The notes: generated from the sequence alone by a model not told the origin. DNA of 64,000 nucleotides from Hadesarchaea archaeon (GCA_029259175.1 JAPDJH010000009.1:57610-121609), one strand, 5' to 3'; positions 10,263-20,609 are shown, counted from the first letter of the stretch. A program made the numbers and translations.

Positions 10263-10389
10263 GCCGGGGTAGCTCAGATGGTTAGAGCGCCAGACTCATA
10301 GCCTCGAAGCGCGGCTGTGAGTGCTGATCCCGCGAGATGATGGGTGAGAAATCTGGAGGTCGCGGGTTCGAGTCCCGCCCCCGGCACCA
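10263..10389 (+). tRNA. tRNA-Met(CAT), elongator type, with 50-nt intron (10301-10350) at 37/38; CCA encoded
   Basis: Acceptor GCCGGGG/CCCCGGC, anticodon stem CCAGA/TCTGG, TTCGAGT T-loop; BHB motif: CTCA(10295-98)/TGAG(10345-48) with TAG and AAA bulges. Confidence 0.95.
10301..10350 (+). ncRNA. Putative intron-encoded box C'/D' methylation guide targeting C34 of its own pre-tRNA
   Basis: GGCTGTGAGT (10313-22) complementary to ACTCATAGCC (10294-303, one G-U); CTGA at 10324-27; ATGATGG at 10337-43; the fifth nt upstream of CTGA pairs with C34. Confidence 0.65.
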
Positions 10390-12317: not shown

Positions 12318-12392
12318 GCCGCCGTAGCTGAGCCTGGTTACAGCGGCCGCCTTGTAAGCGGCAGATCGTGGGTTCAAATCCCACCGGCGGCT
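12318..12392 (+). tRNA. tRNA-Thr(TGT)
   Basis: GCCGCCG/CGGCGGC acceptor, GCCGC-CT-TGT-AA-GCGGC anticodon arm, GTGGG-TTCAAAT-CCCAC T arm; full CCA not encoded. Confidence 0.95.
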
Positions 12393-12394
12393 CA

Positions 12395-12625
12395 TTACAA
12401 CTTCTCCAACAGCTCAAAGAACCTCTCTCGGGTAAGCTCCGCCTCCCGGATTATCGCCCGCACGAGCGCTGGCTTGATCTCCCTATCCGGATGGACCGGG
12501 ATAACGGTACGCACGTTCTCTTTCATCAGGATAACGTGGGGACCCTTCCTCCTAACAATTCGAAATCCTTCATGGATCAATATCTTGATGAGCTTCTCAG
12601 CTGGAACAGGCCCGATTTTAGGCAT
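12395..12625 (-). CDS. hicA: HicA-family toxin
   Basis: LIKIL...GF...RRKGPHVIL...VIPVH..EI....I. Confidence 0.9.
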   Translation of the reverse strand: MPKIGPVPAEKLIKILIHEGFRIVRRKGPHVILMKENVRTVIPVHPDREIKPALVRAIIREAELTRERFFELLEKL

Positions 12626-12872
12626 GAACCTCTACTTTTTGTAATCCAACAACTGACTGCGCCATTTTGAGAACTTCTGATTTCTCCTCTTCATCAAGGG
12701 TTTCCAAGTAGAGTTCGATTGCCTCCTCAACATTTTTCATCAACTCTTCGAGCGTTTCGCCTTGCGTGTGGCACCCTGGCAGGGAAGGAACAAACGCCAC
12801 GTAACCGCCCGTCTCATCCTTTTGAACCACTACATCGAACATCAATCTCTTGGCCATGTCTTTCCCAACCAC
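12618..12872 (-). CDS. hicB: HicB-family antitoxin (short)
   Basis: GGYVAFVPSLPGCHTQGETLEELMKNVEEAIELYLE. Confidence 0.92.
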   Translation of the reverse strand: MVGKDMAKRLMFDVVVQKDETGGYVAFVPSLPGCHTQGETLEELMKNVEEAIELYLETLDEEEKSEVLKMAQSVVGLQKVEVHA

Positions 12873-12959
12873 TCTATGTAAACCAGAGTATAAAATCTAT
12901 GGGAAGTTCCAGCACGAGCAATCGTCCGTGTTTGACAAGCAGTAGGGAATAGACAAGAG

Positions 12960-13003
12960 GAATCTCTGTCCTTCCTCTTTCATTAAGACCACCGGCGGCT
13001 CCA
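12960..13003 (+). repeat. att-like repeat R1 (conserved arm + tRNA-Thr 3' end)
   Basis: GAATCTCTGTCCTTCCTCTTTCATTAAGA-CCACCGGCGGCTCCA. Confidence 0.9.
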
Positions 13004-13026
13004 CGAACACAGTAAATTATTTAAAT

Positions 13027-13046
13027 TTTGAAACAATTGTTTTAAA
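13027..13046. promoter_or_regulatory. Palindromic operator overlapping the promoter of the MNT-HEPN pair
   Basis: TTTG-AAACAATTGTTT-TAAA (perfect 12-bp core) directly before the ATG. Confidence 0.55.
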
Positions 13047-13047
13047 T

Positions 13048-13596
13048 ATGAAACATCTAGACGAAAAGGCTTTGAAGGTGCTCACCTACTTCTTTGAGAA
13101 CCCGCGAGAAGAAGTTTACCTGCGGGAACTGGCACGCCGGCTACGGATGAGCCCAGCAACTGTTATGCGAGCCCTACGTCTCCTCATTAGAGAAGGCTTG
13201 ATAACCAAGCGCCCGGAGAAGCACGCCACCTATTTCAAGGCCAACCTTAACCCATACTTCAGAGAGTTGAAGAAAGCGCATACGGTTTCCAAAGTCTTGC
13301 GCTCCGGAATTCTTGAACTCATCAACGAGAAATCGGTAGGTCTAAGTTCAATACTGCTCTACGGGAGCGCCGCTAAAGGCGAAGACGATCGGGGAAGCGA
13401 CTACGACTTTCTGGTGATTGCCGCAAGATGCGCCCTGAGAAGCAGTGAACTCTCGAAACTTCTAGGGAGAGAGGCCACCCTACAGGTCTTCGACGTGGCG
13501 GGCTGGAAACGAGTAGCAAAGCGAAACCGAGCATTCTACCTAGACGTTATAAGCAATTCCATTGTCCTTTATGGTGGAAAGCCGGTGATCGATTGA
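13048..13596 (+). CDS. wHTH + minimal nucleotidyltransferase (MNT) antitoxin
   Basis: YLRELARRLRMSPATV HTH; LYGSAAKGEDDRGSDYDFLV. Confidence 0.88.
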   Translation: MKHLDEKALKVLTYFFENPREEVYLRELARRLRMSPATVMRALRLLIREGLITKRPEKHATYFKANLNPYFRELKKAHTVSKVLRSGILELINEKSVGLSSILLYGSAAKGEDDRGSDYDFLVIAARCALRSSELSKLLGREATLQVFDVAGWKRVAKRNRAFYLDVISNSIVLYGGKPVID

Positions 13597-14033
13597 CGCT
13601 TAGGGATTGTCTTGCGCAAAGGAAGTTGCGCAGGATACGGCCGGATCCGCTCAAAGCCCGCAAATCGCTGGAAGCTGCGTCTGCAAAACTGAAAAAGGCC
13701 AAGGAACTCCTCGCCGATGAGCATTACGATGCAACCCTTCTGTACGCGTACACGAGCATGTTCAGCTCGGGAAGAGCTCTCCTTTACAAGGACGGCATCC
13801 AAGAGAAATCCCACTACTGTTTGGCTAGGTATCTAGAGGAGAGGTACGTGAAGAGAGGAAAGTTGAATCCAAAGATCATCACCTTCCTCGACTCTTTCCG
13901 TGAGGAGCGGCACGCGATAATGTATGGGTTCGAGGAGGTTGAAATCCGGCGCGAAGAGGCTGAGGAAGCCATCTCGGTTGCGGAAGAATTCCTTGGGAGA
14001 GCTAAAGAACTCGTGGGTAAGCGTACGCGCTGA
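13593..14033 (+). CDS. HEPN-domain protein (toxin)
   Basis: AY.SMF...RALL, KSH, REERHAIMYG; overlaps the MNT stop codon. Confidence 0.85.
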   Translation: MTLRDCLAQRKLRRIRPDPLKARKSLEAASAKLKKAKELLADEHYDATLLYAYTSMFSSGRALLYKDGIQEKSHYCLARYLEERYVKRGKLNPKIITFLDSFREERHAIMYGFEEVEIRREEAEEAISVAEEFLGRAKELVGKRTR

Positions 14034-14080
14034 ATGAAGAAGCTTGCTATTGCTTATCGTCTTTGGTTCTCTGCCGTGGT

Positions 14081-14123
14081 TTCTGTCCTTATACTTTTGA
14101 TAGGAAGCCCACTAGTGGCTCCA
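14081..14123 (+). repeat. att-like repeat R2 (degenerate)
   Basis: TTCTGTCCTTATACTTTTGATAGGAAG-CCCACTAGTGGCTCCA vs tRNA CCCACCGGCGGCTC. Confidence 0.75.
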
Positions 14124-14145
14124 CTATATTTTTTAATAAATAGTT

Positions 14146-14166
14146 AACTTAATATATAGTTAAGTT
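14146..14166. promoter_or_regulatory. Inverted-repeat operator upstream of cassette 3
   Basis: AACTTAA-TATATAG-TTAAGTT. Confidence 0.5.
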
Positions 14167-14186
14167 TTAGGAATAACGGTGTTGAG

Positions 14187-15104
14187 ATGTGGCCTGCTGA
14201 ATGGCTAGCAGAGAAATACTTTGAGATCAAAGAGCTGCCGCGAATAGTCGATCGAAACATGGTTGCAAAAATTTGGAAAACTAACAAAAACTACGCGAGT
14301 GTCACCTTGCACGAGATGCGCGAAGCTTTACTTATAGACAGATTGAAGAGAGGAGCATATCTATCGGTACCGCCTGAGAAATGGCTGCCGGTGCACTCGT
14401 TCCTGATGCGAACTCCAGAAATCGCTCCAGCTCTATCTAAACTATTACAGGACTCGATGAACGATATTGAGTGTCTGGTGCTCTATGGCTCGCGGATTTG
14501 GGGGGGAGATGAGCTAAGCGACTGGGATTTCTTCACCGTTGTTTCCTCCGAAAAGTCGAAGAATGCGATGAGGACCAAACTCCTCAAAATCAGGCAAACA
14601 AATCTTCGACTTGATGTGGAGATATTGTCTGTTCAAGACTTCGAGTTTCTCCTACGCAAAGACCCGATTTTTCTCAAACTCGTAGCGTGCGAGTGCAGGC
14701 CCATAGTAGATACTGGTATTCTTGGAATTGCCAAGGCAATCGAGATTAAACCAGAACACGTTGCCGTTGAAATGTTGGCCGCGAAAGAAAATATTCTACA
14801 GGGCATGGCATGCGCGCGACGAGGCGAAAGCAGTATCGCCTGCTACTGGCTCACCCGCGGGATCCGGCGAACGCTTGCTGCGGCCCTCTCCATGTGTGAA
14901 AACTTCTCCGGGAAAGCTTTGGAAGAGGAATTCAAAGCACGTTTTCCTCAGTATGAGCAACTTCGGGTGATCGTTAAAAAAATTGGCTTGGAACGAGAAA
15001 CACATATACCAAAAAAATTCCTTAGAGAACTTGTTAACAGAACAATAGTCGAGTGGGAACTGGTAGCAAAGGAGTTGCGCAGATGGGGAAAAAGCGCAAA
15101 ATAA
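14187..15104 (+). CDS. wHTH + nucleotidyltransferase + helical (HEPN-like) fusion
   Basis: LH.MRE..LI.RLKRG.Y wHTH; VLYGSRIWGGDELSDWDF MNT; helical C-terminus. Confidence 0.7.
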   Translation: MWPAEWLAEKYFEIKELPRIVDRNMVAKIWKTNKNYASVTLHEMREALLIDRLKRGAYLSVPPEKWLPVHSFLMRTPEIAPALSKLLQDSMNDIECLVLYGSRIWGGDELSDWDFFTVVSSEKSKNAMRTKLLKIRQTNLRLDVEILSVQDFEFLLRKDPIFLKLVACECRPIVDTGILGIAKAIEIKPEHVAVEMLAAKENILQGMACARRGESSIACYWLTRGIRRTLAAALSMCENFSGKALEEEFKARFPQYEQLRVIVKKIGLERETHIPKKFLRELVNRTIVEWELVAKELRRWGKSAK

Positions 15105-15340
15105 AGAAACCAGCAGCGCTTCTGGCACAAAGAAAAGCACACTTGCAACTTGCAGAGGAATTTTCCAAACTCGTACCAACTGAAGTAATTAAACATTGGG
15201 AAAAAGAGGCCGAGCGCTTCGAACGCGAAGCTAGACGGCTTATGACAGGGTTACCCACGAGCTACCTAGAAGAAATAGAAAAGATAAGTGATGAAGAAGC
15301 GAAAAAGCTCTTACGAAGGAAGCGAAAAGAGATAATCTAG
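15083..15340 (+). CDS. Small basic helical hypothetical protein (partner of the 14187 gene)
   Basis: ATG after GGAG; MGKKRKIKK...; overlaps upstream gene end; ends just before R3. Confidence 0.6.
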   Translation: MGKKRKIKKPAALLAQRKAHLQLAEEFSKLVPTEVIKHWEKEAERFEREARRLMTGLPTSYLEEIEKISDEEAKKLLRRKRKEII

Positions 15341-15353
15341 ACATTCGCGTAGC

Positions 15354-15400
15354 GAATCTTCTGTCCTTTACTTTCATTAAGGATCCCACCGGCGGCTCCA
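15354..15400 (+). repeat. att-like repeat R3 (conserved arm + tRNA-Thr 3' end)
   Basis: GAATCTTCTGTCCTTTACTTTCATTAAGG-ATCCCACCGGCGGCTCCA; 16 nt (15383-98) identical to 12378-93. Confidence 0.92.
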
Positions 15401-15417
15401 CAAAAAATAGTTTATAG

Positions 15418-15432
15418 GTAAGGATTTCTTAC
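15418..15432. promoter_or_regulatory. Inverted-repeat operator for the AbrB antitoxin
   Basis: GTAAG-GATTT-CTTAC immediately downstream of a TTTATA box. Confidence 0.5.
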
Positions 15433-15448
15433 ATTAATTAGTGATGGG

Positions 15449-15700
15449 ATGAAAGGAAGCGTGGTAAAAATTACCTCAAAAGGACAACTTACCCTCCCCG
15501 TGGAAATCCGGAGAGAGTTAGGGGTTAGGAAAGACGATTATCTTTACGTCACAAGAGCTGGTGAGCTAATTCTGATGAAGCGGATCGGAGTGAATCCTAA
15601 GGAAATTTTAGATACCTTTCAGCAAGTCGCAAAGGAGAGCGGGCTGACGAGAAAAGAACTAAACCGGGTCATCCGCGAGATCAGGCGGGCAAAAGAATGA
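15449..15700 (+). CDS. AbrB/MazE/SpoVT-family antitoxin (VapB-like)
   Basis: VKITSKGQLTLPVEIRRELGV. Confidence 0.92.
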   Translation: MKGSVVKITSKGQLTLPVEIRRELGVRKDDYLYVTRAGELILMKRIGVNPKEILDTFQQVAKESGLTRKELNRVIREIRRAKE

Positions 15701-16119
15701 ATAAAAAGCCAAGAGTTTTCTTGGACACGAACGTTTTGATATCGGGAATGGTATTCAGAGGAAACGAGAGGAAACTGCTGGACGCGATTATTGATAACCG
15801 ATTGAAACTGGTAATAAGCGACGATGTTTTGAACGAAACAGAAATGGTCTTCAGGAAAAAATTCCCGCAGCACCGTGTTCTTTTCCCGTTATTTTTGCAG
15901 CTCGTGAAGCACGAAAGAATACCGAGAAAAGCGTATAGAAAAGCCGAAAAGACATATTCTGGACTCCTCCGTGACAAAACAGACGCCCACATCCTTGCGG
16001 CCGCTGTCGTGGGCAAGTGCGATTATCTAATTGCCGGCGACAAAGAACTCCTTTCCCTGAAGAAAGTTGGTCTCACAAAAATAATTCAAACGTGGGAGTT
16101 GCTGAGAGAATTGAAATAA
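15697..16119 (+). CDS. PIN-domain toxin (VapC-like)
   Basis: VFLDTNVLISG, E, DKTDAHILAAA, LIAGDKELL. Confidence 0.92.
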   Translation: MNKKPRVFLDTNVLISGMVFRGNERKLLDAIIDNRLKLVISDDVLNETEMVFRKKFPQHRVLFPLFLQLVKHERIPRKAYRKAEKTYSGLLRDKTDAHILAAAVVGKCDYLIAGDKELLSLKKVGLTKIIQTWELLRELK

Positions 16120-16178
16120 ACGTGTGCTCTGTCTCCTCGCGCTTCAGCAAAAACTAAAAACCACACCACCCATCAGAA

Positions 16179-18305
16179 GTGTTGGTGAAGAGACTCGCTC
16201 TCCTAGCTGGAGCAATCCTCATCATTCTCGCCATGGCTCTCCACACTGGAGAAAAGAAGGGAGTTGAGCTGCCCCCGCCGGAGGAGAACCTCGTGCCTTC
16301 TCCATCCCAGCAAGGGCCCGCATGGGAAAACGAAATGGAAGAGATTTTGGTCCAAGTGTTCGAGAGCTCCTATCGAACGGCCGGGCCAGCAGTCGGAGAG
16401 TTCGAGAACGGGCAAGCAGCTGATCTCGTGCTTTTTCAACACGGGTTTGACAACTCCGGAGGCCCACTGAGCTTCAATCACCCCATGGGTCTGACAACCG
16501 ACGGGCAGAGACTGATCCTGGCAGACACGCGCAACAACCGCGTTTTGATCTGGAACGAACTGCCCGACTCAAACACCGTCCCCGACCTCGTGCTCGGCCA
16601 GCCTGATTTCTATCACAACGTTCCCGGCGACGGTTTGGACGAAATGAACTGGCCGGTGGGCGTGGCGACCGATGGCACCAGCCTCGCGGTCGCGGACACG
16701 ATGAACAACCGCGTTCTGGTCTGGCTCGACTTCCCCACCGAAAACGGAGAGCCAGCCGACCTGGCCATCTACGGTCCACCCGACCAGCCCATCGGTGGCC
16801 CTTGGGGCGTCTACTTCCTCGATAACAGATTCATAGTCGTGAGCACTTGGGGCAACTCGGGTGTCTACATCTGGAACCACATCCCCTCAGCCGATGAGCC
16901 ACCGGATCTTGTGCTCACGGGCGACGGAATGATGGGAACGCCGCGGCAGGTGTGGAGCGACGAACAAAGACTGGTCGTTGTGGATCACAACATCGCGCTC
17001 GAATCTGGGGGATCCCAGCCCGGCATGCTTTTCTGGCTGGACTTTCCGACTGCTGACGAGCCACCCGACTTTTACATGACCGGAATGCTGTGGGGACCAG
17101 CGATGGACCACCAGGGGCGCTTCATGGTGCTCAACAACTACGGCCTAGCGATATGGAACGATTTCCCCGCAGGACCGGACGACGAAGCAGATCTGGTCAT
17201 AGGCTCTCCAATGATTGCAGAGTGGATCAGGCGACAGGAGTACCGCTTCGACGATGGAGATGGATCGAGCATTGTTCCTGCGGGCGACCGGCTGTACATC
17301 TCGCTGTACAATGCCAACATGGTGGTCGGCTACCGGTCCTTGCCTGCTTCGCCGGACGATCTGCCAGACTTCGCCTTGGGATCGACGAGTATTTGGATAA
17401 ATCCGATGGAAAACAAGGGTTTCTTCGAGAACCCCGTTCCCGCCTCGGATGGGGAGCACCTCTTCGTGGCCAGCGGATTCAGCAGGCGTCTGTGCGTCTG
17501 GCGCAATATTCCCGATGAGAGCGGTGCAACCCCCGATGTGATCTACACGTTTCCAAATCTTGAGCCCACCAACGTTTGGGTGGAAAACGGAAAGCTGGCG
17601 CTCGGAACGAACAGCTCAATCGTCTACATCTGGAATCACTTGCCCCTAGCAGGCGAACTTCCAGATGTTGTTCTCAACCTAGAAAACATCTTTGCCCCTC
17701 CGGAGAGCGATTCAGCCGAAACCGGCATCATCCCCGTGTGGGTTTGCCTGGCCAAAAACCGGCTGTTCGTTTGGGAGGTCGGGGGGACGATTCTGGTGTG
17801 GAACGAGGTGCCCACAGAGCAAGAGGACCCGGATCTCGTCATCCCCACCGATCTCCCGATCTCGTGGCTGTGTGTGGACGACGATCGCCTAGTCGTTACG
17901 ACAAGGGACGATGAGGTCAGGGTGTATGACCTAATTGACCTCCTCTCCCTCCAGCCCCCGGCTACCGAAAAACTGAGCAAAGAGGGGGCTCCCCAGATCG
18001 AAAATGCTCTGCGTTTGGTATTGAGAAGGGATGCGAACAGGGAGGAGTTTAGAGCCCCCACCGGTGTCCACTCGCGAGAAAACAAGCTCTTGCTAGTAGA
18101 CCTAGAGCTGAGCGAGGTGTTTATCTGGAACGGATTCCCCACCCAGAACGACCAGCCACCGGACGCCGTTTTGGGGAGTAAAATGGAGTGGGCAACCAAC
18201 AGCAACACATTCTTCTGGCCAGCGATGGTGTGGTACGATGGAGACCACCTCTGGGTCGGGGAAACCAAATTCTCGAACAGACTTCTGAGATTCTCGCCCT
18301 CATAG
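16179..18305 (+). CDS. Secreted/membrane-anchored NHL-repeat-like beta-propeller protein
   Basis: N-terminal signal; repeated P.G..TDG..L..ADT.NNRVL.W..P......DLVLG units. Confidence 0.8.
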   Translation: MLVKRLALLAGAILIILAMALHTGEKKGVELPPPEENLVPSPSQQGPAWENEMEEILVQVFESSYRTAGPAVGEFENGQAADLVLFQHGFDNSGGPLSFNHPMGLTTDGQRLILADTRNNRVLIWNELPDSNTVPDLVLGQPDFYHNVPGDGLDEMNWPVGVATDGTSLAVADTMNNRVLVWLDFPTENGEPADLAIYGPPDQPIGGPWGVYFLDNRFIVVSTWGNSGVYIWNHIPSADEPPDLVLTGDGMMGTPRQVWSDEQRLVVVDHNIALESGGSQPGMLFWLDFPTADEPPDFYMTGMLWGPAMDHQGRFMVLNNYGLAIWNDFPAGPDDEADLVIGSPMIAEWIRRQEYRFDDGDGSSIVPAGDRLYISLYNANMVVGYRSLPASPDDLPDFALGSTSIWINPMENKGFFENPVPASDGEHLFVASGFSRRLCVWRNIPDESGATPDVIYTFPNLEPTNVWVENGKLALGTNSSIVYIWNHLPLAGELPDVVLNLENIFAPPESDSAETGIIPVWVCLAKNRLFVWEVGGTILVWNEVPTEQEDPDLVIPTDLPISWLCVDDDRLVVTTRDDEVRVYDLIDLLSLQPPATEKLSKEGAPQIENALRLVLRRDANREEFRAPTGVHSRENKLLLVDLELSEVFIWNGFPTQNDQPPDAVLGSKMEWATNSNTFFWPAMVWYDGDHLWVGETKFSNRLLRFSPS

Positions 18306-18309
18306 AAGC

Positions 18310-18378
18310 GGGTGTCCCGCGCCCGGTGGAACCTGAGCCATCGCCTCGTCTCCTCAGGCGCATGGCAGGCGCGGGCAT
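18310..18378 (-). ncRNA. Candidate archaeal box H/ACA guide RNA
   Basis: Minus strand CCCGCGCC-UGCCA-UGCGCC-UGA-loop-CGAU-GGCUCA-GGUUCCACCG-GGCGCGGG-ACA: basal stem, pocket, K-loop, ACA box; TTTTTAG about 25 nt upstream. Confidence 0.65.
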
Positions 18379-18495
18379 AGAAAATTTTTCTTTCTCACTA
18401 AAAAGGGTTACAAGTCTATAACACTGTCCACAAACATGCTGAGTATGATCCAGTCGTCTATAAGTGTAGTGTGCTCATCCGAAAGTATTCTGATC

Positions 18496-19296
18496 CTAAA
18501 AAGCTGATTCACACTTTAGACCTAGAACTTTAGATTTCCGCTCGATTTCTTTTTTTACACTTCTCCACCACTCTGGCGTTTGCAAGATCTTTTTTATCTT
18601 AGCAACTTCCTCCGCGCCAAATACTCGTTCAAGTCTCTCGAGCACACCCGTTTTTACGTTGAGCTTATCATACATCACATAACTTCCACTAGACTTGGCT
18701 TCTCGCAACACTTCTTCGATTTGCTCGGGCGAATCGTTCACACCTGGGATTATAGGGCCCAAGAACAGCCACGTCTCCACATTACGCTCTTTGAATTCCT
18801 TCAGAACCTGAACACGTGCATCGGGATCCGGCGCACGAGGTTCAATTTTAGAAACGACATCTGCATCCAGCGTGGTAACCGTCACGCCCACTTCGAATTT
18901 CTCCCCCCGGATAAGATCCCGATCGCGCAACACCAGATCAGATTTGGTCTGAATGCAAACACCAAAACCCGAATCGCGGAGAACCTCCAAACACCGTCTG
19001 GTAAGCTCCACCTCTTTTTCAATTGGCTGGTAGGGATCACAGACTGTAGAAACACCCACCACCCCCGGCCGCTTACGTCTCACTTCAGCCCTCAGCACCT
19101 CAGCCACATTCTCCTTAAGCCAAACATCCTGTCCCCACCTCTCCACCAGTTCGGCATCTCTCAGAATAGCTGGAGAGTAACAGTAGAGACAGCCGTGCTC
19201 ACATCCGCGATAGGGATTAAGAGCATAATCCAGTCCCGGAAGTCCGCTTTTCGATAGCGCGCTCTTGCACCGCATCAGGTGGTACCTTGCTTTCAT
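18496..19296 (-). CDS. Radical SAM protein, SplB/spore photoproduct lyase-like
   Basis: LNPYRGCEHGCLYCY, DPYQP.E, TKS, EP.AP. Confidence 0.9.
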   Translation of the reverse strand: MKARYHLMRCKSALSKSGLPGLDYALNPYRGCEHGCLYCYSPAILRDAELVERWGQDVWLKENVAEVLRAEVRRKRPGVVGVSTVCDPYQPIEKEVELTRRCLEVLRDSGFGVCIQTKSDLVLRDRDLIRGEKFEVGVTVTTLDADVVSKIEPRAPDPDARVQVLKEFKERNVETWLFLGPIIPGVNDSPEQIEEVLREAKSSGSYVMYDKLNVKTGVLERLERVFGAEEVAKIKKILQTPEWWRSVKKEIERKSKVLGLKCESAF

Positions 19297-20609
19297 GTCA
19301 AGAACTCCGTTATTCGTTTTTGATGTAAAACACGCCTAAGCATCCAACTGTGCTTTATCCATTCTCCAAGAGGAATAGTCAGATGGCTCATAGCATGCTC
19401 CAACGCCTCGCGTAGAGTGTCAAACCGTGCTGGTTTCTGCCGCACCATCGCCCTCACACTTTCTCTAACATTCCACACGCCCACCGGCAATATATATCCG
19501 GGATGAATCTCACGCAACACCAGCACCGCAGCCTGACGTTTTTCTCTTACCAGCTGCTCACACACGGCCAACCTGCAAGAATAGTAACATCCTCCCACTT
19601 CGGGATAGGTCGTTCTCCCCCAATACTCTTCGTAGTCTCCCATCATCGCTGGTTTAGCGGCAAATCTGTCCGGATTCCATGTGGTCCCCGGAAACCAGGC
19701 CTCTATCCACTCGTAACTCCAGCTCTCAGGAAAGAAGATCCCGACAAATCGATTATCAAGGTGGCGAAAAGCGTAGACCCTGTACTCATCGATCACCGGA
19801 TAGGTCTTCACCTCGTCCATCAACCGCTGGGACACGATCGAGTCCACGGCAGTTATGCTCCAACGTGTTGGAACTAGACGTCTGCGCTCTTGGACTCCAA
19901 ACATCCCGAGACTAAACGCGCGCTGAATCCTGCTGATCTCAACCCCCTGCGAATACAGCTCCCAAACGGCGTCCGCGGCTTTGAGATCCCGGTCATAAAA
20001 CGTCCGCTCGAGCTTGTGATCGGAACCACCCACACTCGCTCGAAAGCTGCGCATGGGGGCTGAAGGGCCAAAAGGAGGGATCTCATTTCCGAGTGTCAGA
20101 ACTGCACTTGGTTTGCGTTCTAAAACCAGCTCGGCATCCGCAGGAGTGCGGCTAAGCAACATCTCTTGAAGTGTCTCAAGAATGCGGCTACCCGTAGCCG
20201 CATCACGAACATCAGCGCGTGTTTTTCCGCGAATCAGCGAAAAACGAAAATCAATTATTTCCTGAATGTCACGGCCAAGCCATTGCTCGGGAGTATCAAG
20301 TATCGATGTATCCCCCCTTATTGGCGGAACCATTGGCCCTACTAAAACCTTCGGATATCCTATTCGGCCTACAAAGACTCCTGGAGGGCTCGATCCTTCT
20401 ACTATCGAGGAATTGATTTTCAATGATGTTTTCACAAGCGAGCGGGCGCGGGCAAGAACTGGGCAACGCAGCTTGCCGCATAACATGCGCCCGCCCTTGC
20501 AGTGCAAACACACCGCACCGGAACGCGTGCTCACCACTTTGAAACTCGTGAGTTCCCGAGCGATGTTCGATGGAACAACATCGGCGAGCCAGCTCATAGC
20601 CCGATTCAT
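19293..20609 (-). CDS. nreA: Nre-family DNA repair protein with C-terminal PIP box
   Basis: C..CKG...LCG..CP, SPPGVFVGRIGYP, LVPTRWSITAVD, PVGVWNVRE; terminal QKRITEF. Confidence 0.92.
   Translation of the reverse strand: MNRAMSWLADVVPSNIARELTSFKVVSTRSGAVCLHCKGGRMLCGKLRCPVLARARSLVKTSLKINSSIVEGSSPPGVFVGRIGYPKVLVGPMVPPIRGDTSILDTPEQWLGRDIQEIIDFRFSLIRGKTRADVRDAATGSRILETLQEMLLSRTPADAELVLERKPSAVLTLGNEIPPFGPSAPMRSFRASVGGSDHKLERTFYDRDLKAADAVWELYSQGVEISRIQRAFSLGMFGVQERRRLVPTRWSITAVDSIVSQRLMDEVKTYPVIDEYRVYAFRHLDNRFVGIFFPESWSYEWIEAWFPGTTWNPDRFAAKPAMMGDYEEYWGRTTYPEVGGCYYSCRLAVCEQLVREKRQAAVLVLREIHPGYILPVGVWNVRESVRAMVRQKPARFDTLREALEHAMSHLTIPLGEWIKHSWMLRRVLHQKRITEFLT

Follow-up and report, generated by a model that had tools for sequence, protein, structure and literature searches.

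The locus behind tRNA-Thr(TGT)

Our starting point was a 64-kb stretch of DNA (referred to as the window) from contig C5 of a deep-sea Hadesarchaea archaeon. Within it, a tRNA-Thr(TGT) gene is followed by an array of short toxin-antitoxin (TA) operons, separated by partial copies of the tRNA 3' end. The genome (G000) comprises 1.3 Mb in 23 contigs and is 91% complete. Relatives searched were the other genomes of the same order (65 including this one, 64 others; labels G0xx). Genes were called with Pfam, and tRNAs with ARAGORN and Rfam. Positions are those of the window unless another contig is named. The array is organised as follows.

12318–12393, plus strand: tRNA-Thr(TGT), the anchor and proposed attL side (ARAGORN and Rfam).
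12395–12872, minus strand: cassette 1, hicA (12395–12625) and hicB (12618–12872), reading toward the tRNA (Pfam).
12960–13003, plus strand: element 1, arm 12960–12988 and core 12989–13003 (CCACCGGCGGCTCCA) (alignment, core and arm+core searches).
13004–14033, plus strand: cassette 2, AT-rich promoter/operator with palindrome (13020–13053), a winged-helix plus nucleotidyltransferase (wHTH-MNT) gene (13048–13596) and HEPN (13593–14033) (Pfam).
14081–14123, plus strand: element 2, arm 14081–14108 and core 14109–14123 (alignment, core and arm+core searches).
14124–15340, plus strand: cassette 3, promoter region, 305-aa MNT-like protein (14187–15104) and 95-aa partner (from 15053 or 15083 to 15340).
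15354–15400, plus strand: element 3, arm 15354–15382 and core from 15383 (alignment, core and arm+core searches).
15401–16119, plus strand: cassette 4, promoter, AbrB/MazE antitoxin (15449–15700) and PIN toxin (15697–16119); the right boundary is not defined (Pfam).
16127–16150, plus strand: a 'degenerate arm' according to the original prediction for this DNA; unconfirmed.

The original prediction, made from the sequence alone, had described four TA-type modules behind the tRNA. ARAGORN, Rfam and Pfam agree on the tRNA and on the gene pairs, the third module being MNT-like only. The HicA/HicB, MNT/HEPN and AbrB/PIN pairs, which are paired type II or type VII TA modules, all score above Pfam cut-offs. 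E values are 6.6e-16 for HicA, 5.5e-13 for HicB, 3.4e-17 for HEPN and 2.1e-18 for the toxin of cassette 4 (PIN_3). Cassette 3 is a candidate TA pair on account of its MNT-like core only. The sole Pfam match of the 305-aa protein is Polbeta, below cut-off (E 2.4e-4), and profile comparison aligns the core with an MNT alignment at 92.9% probability. The C-terminal third has no Pfam match, an HEPN profile probability of 0.13%, and only weak PDB matches. No family was assigned to the 95-aa partner. Note that GC content is 46.9% in the array and 53.2% in the window.

The repeated core corresponds to the last 16 nt of the tRNA gene (12378–12393). A 13-mer within it, CCACCGGCGGCTC, has exactly three copies in the window: inside the tRNA (12381), in element 1 (12989) and in element 3 (15386). 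In element 3, positions 15383–15398 are identical to the last 16 nt of the tRNA. The core of element 2 (14109) carries three substitutions, all of them transitions (CCGGCGG to CTAGTGG). Alignment of the elements also reveals a common arm of ~30 nt, TCTGTCCTT..CTTT.., ahead of the core. Core and arm searches returned the three elements, each an arm followed by the tRNA 3' end, at the positions first proposed for them. The combined arm+core pattern matched three times in the whole 1.3-Mb genome, always at this locus, and control matches numbered 0. The CCGG to CTAG change is seen in two decayed cores: at 14113–14116, and near position 107,385 of contig C2, 1343 nt behind tRNA-Val(TAC). Such a change is expected if a methylated inner C is deaminated on both strands, or if there is selection against a CCGG site.

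At the left end of the array, the hicA stop codon is 1–2 nt from the end of the tRNA (2 nt in the original prediction). The tRNA gene ends ..GGCTCA|TTACA, the encoded CCA having been lost at the hicA junction. In genomes G049 and G024, the equivalent junction is ..GGCTCCA, followed by 8–9 nt, and then the hicA stop. Hence, about 9 nt, including the encoded CCA, have been lost at the junction in this genome.

Decayed integrase coding sequence, named in the original prediction as the alternative source of the arm, does not appear to account for it. Peptides in the plus frames are similar only where the DNA is similar. Indels shift the reading frame between elements 1 and 3, and no frame is kept across arms. 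The minus frames of the element 2 arm, and of the G049 and G024 arms, run into stops, and there was no integrase signal in hidden Markov model (HMM) searches. Positions 16127–16150 are not confirmed as a fourth arm. The segment has only CTCTGTC in common with the arms, and it is not counted because homologous AbrB/PIN cassettes lose all similarity directly after the stop codon.

Every cassette starts with its own AT-rich promoter/operator, conserved together with the cargo in other genomes, and cassette 1 is inverted. On the left, the boundary is in every case the promoter of the operon itself, 13–38 nt from the repeat. For cassette 2, the left end is conserved in G042 and G022 from just past the CCA, and the promoter of AbrB/PIN is conserved in G011 and G015. 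No single cassette has an inverted-repeat pair at both ends. Ahead of each wHTH-MNT gene is a palindromic, operator-like motif (13020–13053 here, with homologous sites at loci L092, L091, L089, L164 and L176), which is kept from Hadarchaeota to a bacterium. This is probably the site of winged-helix autoregulation.

The array is genuine, and not an assembly artefact, since it is found in contigs of an independent study and run. A 3231-nt contig from a second study covers 12318–15548, with 8 differences, and a 43.7-kb contig from another run covers 13581–19500. Read-level data were assembled Logan contigs only, with runs X4, X9 and X10 among them. Two joints were present in contigs, from 12900 to 13062 (X4) and from 12982 to 13419 (X9), with short sides of 29–30 nt. 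A diverged, G049-like variant accounts for the first. Gaps in the cover of X9 and X10 carry no information. In a low-depth (2x) contig of another study (run X10), arm 3 has one extra A at 15368.

Related cassettes in other genomes and behind other genes

We compared the array with other genomes of the order. Genome G042 belongs to another family, and its triosephosphate isomerase (TIM) is 53% identical to that encoded here. Directly after tRNA-Thr(TGT) and the CCA, it has a wHTH-MNT cassette with 87% amino acid identity. At the nucleotide level, similarity sets in no more than a few bases from the CCA; HEPN is cut after residue 61. Genome G049 is from a third family, with a radical-SAM protein 50% identical to that of this organism. 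It encodes HicA (84%), HicB (96%) and MNT (92%) behind tRNA-Thr(CGT), which has an identical 3' end. The order is tRNA-Thr(CGT), HicAB, an element 2-type arm with a partial core fused to MNT codon 5, MNT, and then an AbrB-like gene replacing HEPN. The G049 MNT gene (locus L088, G049:C1 9170–10240) is split by a ~1-kb insert with transposase-like open frames. This insert is absent from metagenome contig L158, which has a G049-like array, and from the G049-like variant in run X4, found at ~170x beside the present organism at ~15x. Metagenome relatives of MNT comprise 2 loci, one of them from a G049-like strain whose array lacks the insert.

In G024, HicAB (82% and 94%) sits between two Thr-type cores and is closed by an element 2-type arm. 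On one side of the block is tRNA-Ser(CGA), and on the other a degraded tRNA-Thr(CGT). The latter (locus L104, G024:C4, reverse strand 2000–2085) consists of the 5' half and anticodon arm, 19 unrelated bases, and a Thr-type core; ARAGORN does not call it. An MNT/HEPN cassette of G022 (68–72% amino acid identity) is inserted in tRNA-Ser(GGA) and flanked by a direct repeat of 16 nt from the end of this tRNA; the cassette arm looks like a diverged T-arm. The orthologous tRNA of G015, compared as a possible empty site, has a different downstream flank. A cassette of the MNT/HEPN type in G015 is flanked by a 55-nt repeat, drawn from the final codons of a small gene that ends in Gly-Gly. The pair of genes for the 305-aa and 95-aa proteins is present in four other genomes, and in G004 is directly after tRNA-Pro(GGG).

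On the basis of G042, G049, G024, G022 and G015, cassette content and order differ among genomes. An identical order in all relatives, which would have counted against the original prediction, was not observed. The cassettes are discrete units that have spread horizontally, and been reshuffled, among Hadarchaeota. The identities support sharing across families at a level far above that of housekeeping genes, and the cross-genome comparison favours mobile units over a local relic. The element 2-type arm follows MNT/HEPN here and HicAB in both G049 and G024. Arm type is independent of cargo, in keeping with the earlier claim of one arm serving different cargoes.

The flank of the array was examined by comparing the region behind the TIM gene in 20 relatives. 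Two further genes are relevant.

16179–18305, plus strand: 708-aa NHL-repeat protein.
18496–19296, minus strand: radical-SAM gene, which in relatives forms the native flank to the right of the tRNA.

ARAGORN detects a Thr-type tRNA in 14 of the 20 regions, and 13 of these tRNAs end in GGCTCCA. Within the stretches compared, no second copy of the tRNA 3' end was found in the 14 relatives. At two of the 20 loci (G004 and G034), the radical-SAM gene is within ~25 bp of the tRNA. Hence, DNA from 12394 to ~18495, including the NHL-repeat gene, is extra with respect to G004 and G034. The NHL-repeat gene may be an older part of the island. Its product has a signal-like N-terminus, and no boundary repeat was found for it.

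The original prediction centred on tRNA-Thr, and this tRNA turned out not to be special. Using array proteins as phmmer queries, we found related TA modules at 10 loci of this genome. Seven are located no more than 2 kb downstream of the 3' end of a tRNA. Such zones account for 6.2% of the genome (binomial P 3.7e-7 for 7 of 10). In the same genome, AbrB/PIN is found behind tRNA-Thr(CGT), closed by a decayed core, HicAB behind tRNA-Phe, HEPN/MNT behind tRNA-Lys, and MNT/HEPN behind tRNA-Leu. At the tRNA-Phe locus (G000:C3:179841–180421), a fragment matching the tRNA-Leu 3' end and downstream flank is positioned at +18, followed by HicAB. Here, the core of one tRNA type has been carried to another tRNA. 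Three relatives have HicAB units of 0.52–0.68 kb bounded by a tRNA 3' end: G015, G021 (tRNA-Val) and G001 (tRNA-Ile). Besides tRNA-Thr, cassette targets are Ser, Val, Ile, Phe, Lys, Leu and Pro tRNAs, and the 3' end of a protein gene.

Outside the order, we retrieved 25 MNT relatives and scanned 23. Four MNT/HEPN loci have units of 1.1–1.27 kb, with the operon only, bounded by repeats of 24–57 nt at non-tRNA sites. The repeats are 24 nt in Micrarchaeota, ~57 nt and imperfect in Thermoplasmata, 24 nt in Thermoplasmatota, and a perfect 35 nt in a Thermodesulfovibrionia bacterium. Overall, 14 repeat-bounded units were counted, each with a TA operon only. No integrase gene or fragment was seen in the 14 units, the HMM searches having covered this genome's array alone. 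Since minimal units of one kind are encountered at several different tRNAs, and across several families, the data suggest a maintained class and not chance decay.

Possible routes of cassette accretion

We lean, with modest confidence, towards serial, site-specific accretion at tRNA-Thr(TGT) of non-autonomous mini-cassettes, similar to cis-mobilizable elements (CIMEs), with an integrase supplied in trans. The stack consists of at least three, and probably four, cassettes in tandem. Briefly, each cassette is a self-contained TA operon that brings its own promoter and a cassette-borne arm of ~30 nt. In the free form, presumably a circle, a single tRNA 3' end (T-loop/acceptor region) would serve as attachment core. 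Recombination between this core and the tRNA gene would rebuild a working tRNA (attL) and displace the old 3' end outward, as arm plus core (attR). The regenerated tRNA could then be hit repeatedly, so that cassettes would stack with the newest proximal. Such an order had been predicted, and G042 fits: its MNT cassette is at the tRNA, where HicAB intervenes here. The most likely catalyst would be a tyrosine integrase, acting in trans, from integrase-bearing elements at tRNA genes of the same lineage.

The array lacks a recombinase, as originally noted, and there was no match to PF00589 (E ≤ 1), PF16795 or PF00239 anywhere on the contig. Elsewhere in this genome are three tyrosine-recombinase genes (PF00589), on contigs C1 and C2 only, and 0 matches to PF16795. 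Each of the three is beside another tRNA gene, and so none corresponds to the stand-alone enzyme that the original prediction had in mind. Two observations make an integrase acting in trans plausible. First, a 14-kb integrase-bearing element at tRNA-Gly(TCC) of this genome has an attR consisting of a diverged T-arm, then an identical 3' end, like those of the cassettes. Second, an integrase on contig C16 of G004, 45% identical to one of this genome's, is directly behind a twice-interrupted tRNA-Thr(GGT) with an identical core. The latter enzyme, and that encoded by C1:118694–119956 of this genome, are candidates. The tRNA-Gly(TCC) element (G000:C2:147003–161070) has its tRNA-end repeat at 161057, and its 616-aa integrase open frame passes through the tRNA in antisense. 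For this element, the att site may be internal to the integrase gene.

Several results weigh against accretion by an integrase in trans. No integrase could be tied to these cassettes, and genomes G049, G024, G011, G001 and G003 have 0 matches to PF00589 and 0 to PF16795. Of these, G049, G024, G011 and G001 nevertheless carry such cassettes. The same cargo is found at many targets, with repeats of 15–55 nt, and repeat length varies by target. This would need many integrase specificities, or another mechanism. Linkage to tRNA genes, as called by ARAGORN, is partial in relatives: 7 of 18 HicB loci, 5 of 29 MNT loci and 1 of 8 loci for the 305-aa protein, compared with 3 of 29 integrase loci. Note that these counts are lower bounds, because ARAGORN misses intron-bearing tRNAs (window 10263–10386 and locus L152). 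The former, on the plus strand, scores 63.4 bits with Rfam. The strict arm+core pattern had 0 matches in the 64 other genomes of the order, and in metagenome, genome and viral collections. The arm family is therefore small and fast-diverging, and arm relatives in other genomes were reached only via cargo proteins. Decay also happens, since the G049 array has deletions and an insertion sequence (IS). Finally, neither a circle junction nor a same-species empty site was seen in the assembled contigs, from which no verdict on either can be drawn.

The main rival, though unlikely, is that the cassettes were left behind by deletion within multi-kb integrase-bearing plasmids or viruses. TA genes would be kept since their loss is harmful, and sharing would reflect transfer of the parents. 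Remnants at archaeal tRNA genes are a standard finding (remnants of 13 insertion events are described in PMC3718332), tandem att reuse is known (PMC6563490), and CIMEs are defined as decayed elements retaining attL and attR (PMC5704250). Decay of this kind is also apparent in the G049 deletions, which fuse cassettes, alongside the IS insertion, and in the truncated HEPN of G042. Conversely, deletion would have to yield all 14 units with a TA operon only and no integrase seen, with a left boundary always at the operon's own promoter, and with one arm type for different cargoes. Furthermore, the viral collection has no carrier of MNT or HicB, and no parent element with these operons was found there or in the single metagenome match.

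Spread independent of any recombinase is improbable. Here, homologous recombination via the highly conserved tRNA gene and the short tRNA-derived repeat would move cassettes from one related genome to another, with circles arising from the repeats and re-entering by single crossover. This would accommodate the cassette-bearing genomes in which neither tyrosine nor SSV-type integrases are detectable. It would also accommodate repeats whose length follows the target, as expected of a plain homologous segment. The TGT, CGT and GGT tRNA-Thr genes have one and the same core, HicAB is found at TGT and CGT, and the two lineages of run X4 are donor-like and recipient-like lineages in one sample. However, 15 bases is very short, and the first insertion at a new target, like the move from Thr to Ser, is left unexplained. 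Moreover, the arms resemble diverged T-arms beside a crossover, as in the 14-kb integrase-bearing element.

TA cassettes are typical of chromosomal integrons. A true integron platform, in which the tRNA end would act as attI and the 45-bp elements would be attC sites for a dedicated integrase, would produce an array of short cassettes with a repeated boundary element, and integrons including attC clusters are reported in Hadarchaeota (10.1101/2022.02.06.479319). Such a platform is very improbable, and is excluded by tests of attC folding, GTTRRRY, Rfam and PF00589: single-stranded folds of the three elements, on both strands, have z values of -0.49 to -1.29 and are not attC-like, GTTRRRY is not enriched (4 found, 4.95 expected), Rfam has no match at the array other than the tRNA, the cassettes have their own promoters with one inverted, and no candidate stand-alone IntI exists, since the tyrosine recombinases of this genome all sit beside other tRNAs. 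The 'integron-like' label of the original prediction is thus an analogy only.

Relation to known mobile elements

The CIMEs of streptococci (PMC5704250) have no integration genes, retain attL and attR, form tandem stacks at target-gene 3' ends through site-specific recombination, and depend on a helper integrase. The cassettes are alike in anatomy: they are bounded by repeats of the target 3' end, in the positions of attL and attR, and integration genes are absent inside. They differ in being archaeal, only 0.5–1.3 kb in size, and limited to a TA operon with its own promoter; no helper element was identified. Integron arrays (10.1101/2022.02.06.479319) also consist of small single-operon cassettes, with a related closing element, a shared boundary and entry probably at one end. 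In contrast, there is no IntI, attC structure or common promoter here; the anchor is a tRNA, and the core is its 3' end.

Archaeal plasmids and viruses integrated at tRNAs, with SSV-type 'suicidal' integrases (PMC7253208, PMC4158269), share the tRNA 3' target, the direct repeat, and tandem reuse of the site. Unlike them, the cassettes have no intact integrase, and no int(N) or int(C) fragments overlapping the att repeats. Among integrated elements reported from Thaumarchaeota, the shortest measures 2.6 kb and has an integrase gene (PMC6563490). Tandem casposon insertions (PMC6563490) resemble the array in that one site is used for insertion again and again, and adjoining units are separated by a short target duplication. 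However, there are no terminal inverted repeats on any cassette, no Cas1 in or near the array, and no fixed length of duplication, the repeats ranging from 15 to 55 nt. The original reading of a cassette-capture system based on a tRNA is supported in part: the anatomy, the discrete units and their horizontal spread are established by the comparisons, and circular intermediates, the integrase and the order of insertion are inferred.

TA modules are highly mobile and, outside integrons, plasmids and transposons, their vehicle is unclear. A bolder proposal, which we put forward tentatively and judge more probably wrong than right, is that the Hadarchaeota TA operons, with the wider wHTH-MNT/HEPN family, form a distinct class of minimal 'att-cassettes'. 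These would carry only a mimic of a tRNA or gene 3' end, ride on any available recombination activity, and pile up behind tRNAs as a counterpart of integrons. They could be a long-missing TA vehicle. With repeat-bounded, TA-only units recurring at the 3' ends of tRNAs and genes, in archaea and in one bacterium or more, such a vehicle would become concrete and testable. If true, tRNA-linked 'remnants' in archaea could be maintained mini-elements and not debris.

A large comparative survey of TA mobility includes MNT-HEPN insertions into syntenic loci, and its text is silent on direct repeats, on tRNA genes and on integrases (PMC2701414). In the text of a 2026 study of TA acquisition in bacteria (PMC13617665), neither 'tRNA' nor 'direct repeat' appears. 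A literature search, with supplementary files and subscription journals outside its scope, turned up no account of TA cassettes that lack an integrase and have target 3' ends as boundaries.

A further integrase gene of this genome bears on its assembly. A 446-aa integrase is encoded directly behind tRNA-Met (G000:C1:27748–29205), and the tRNA-Met 3' end is found elsewhere only at C10:6758. Because this sole other copy is on C10, contigs C1 and C10 may be joined via an integrated element.

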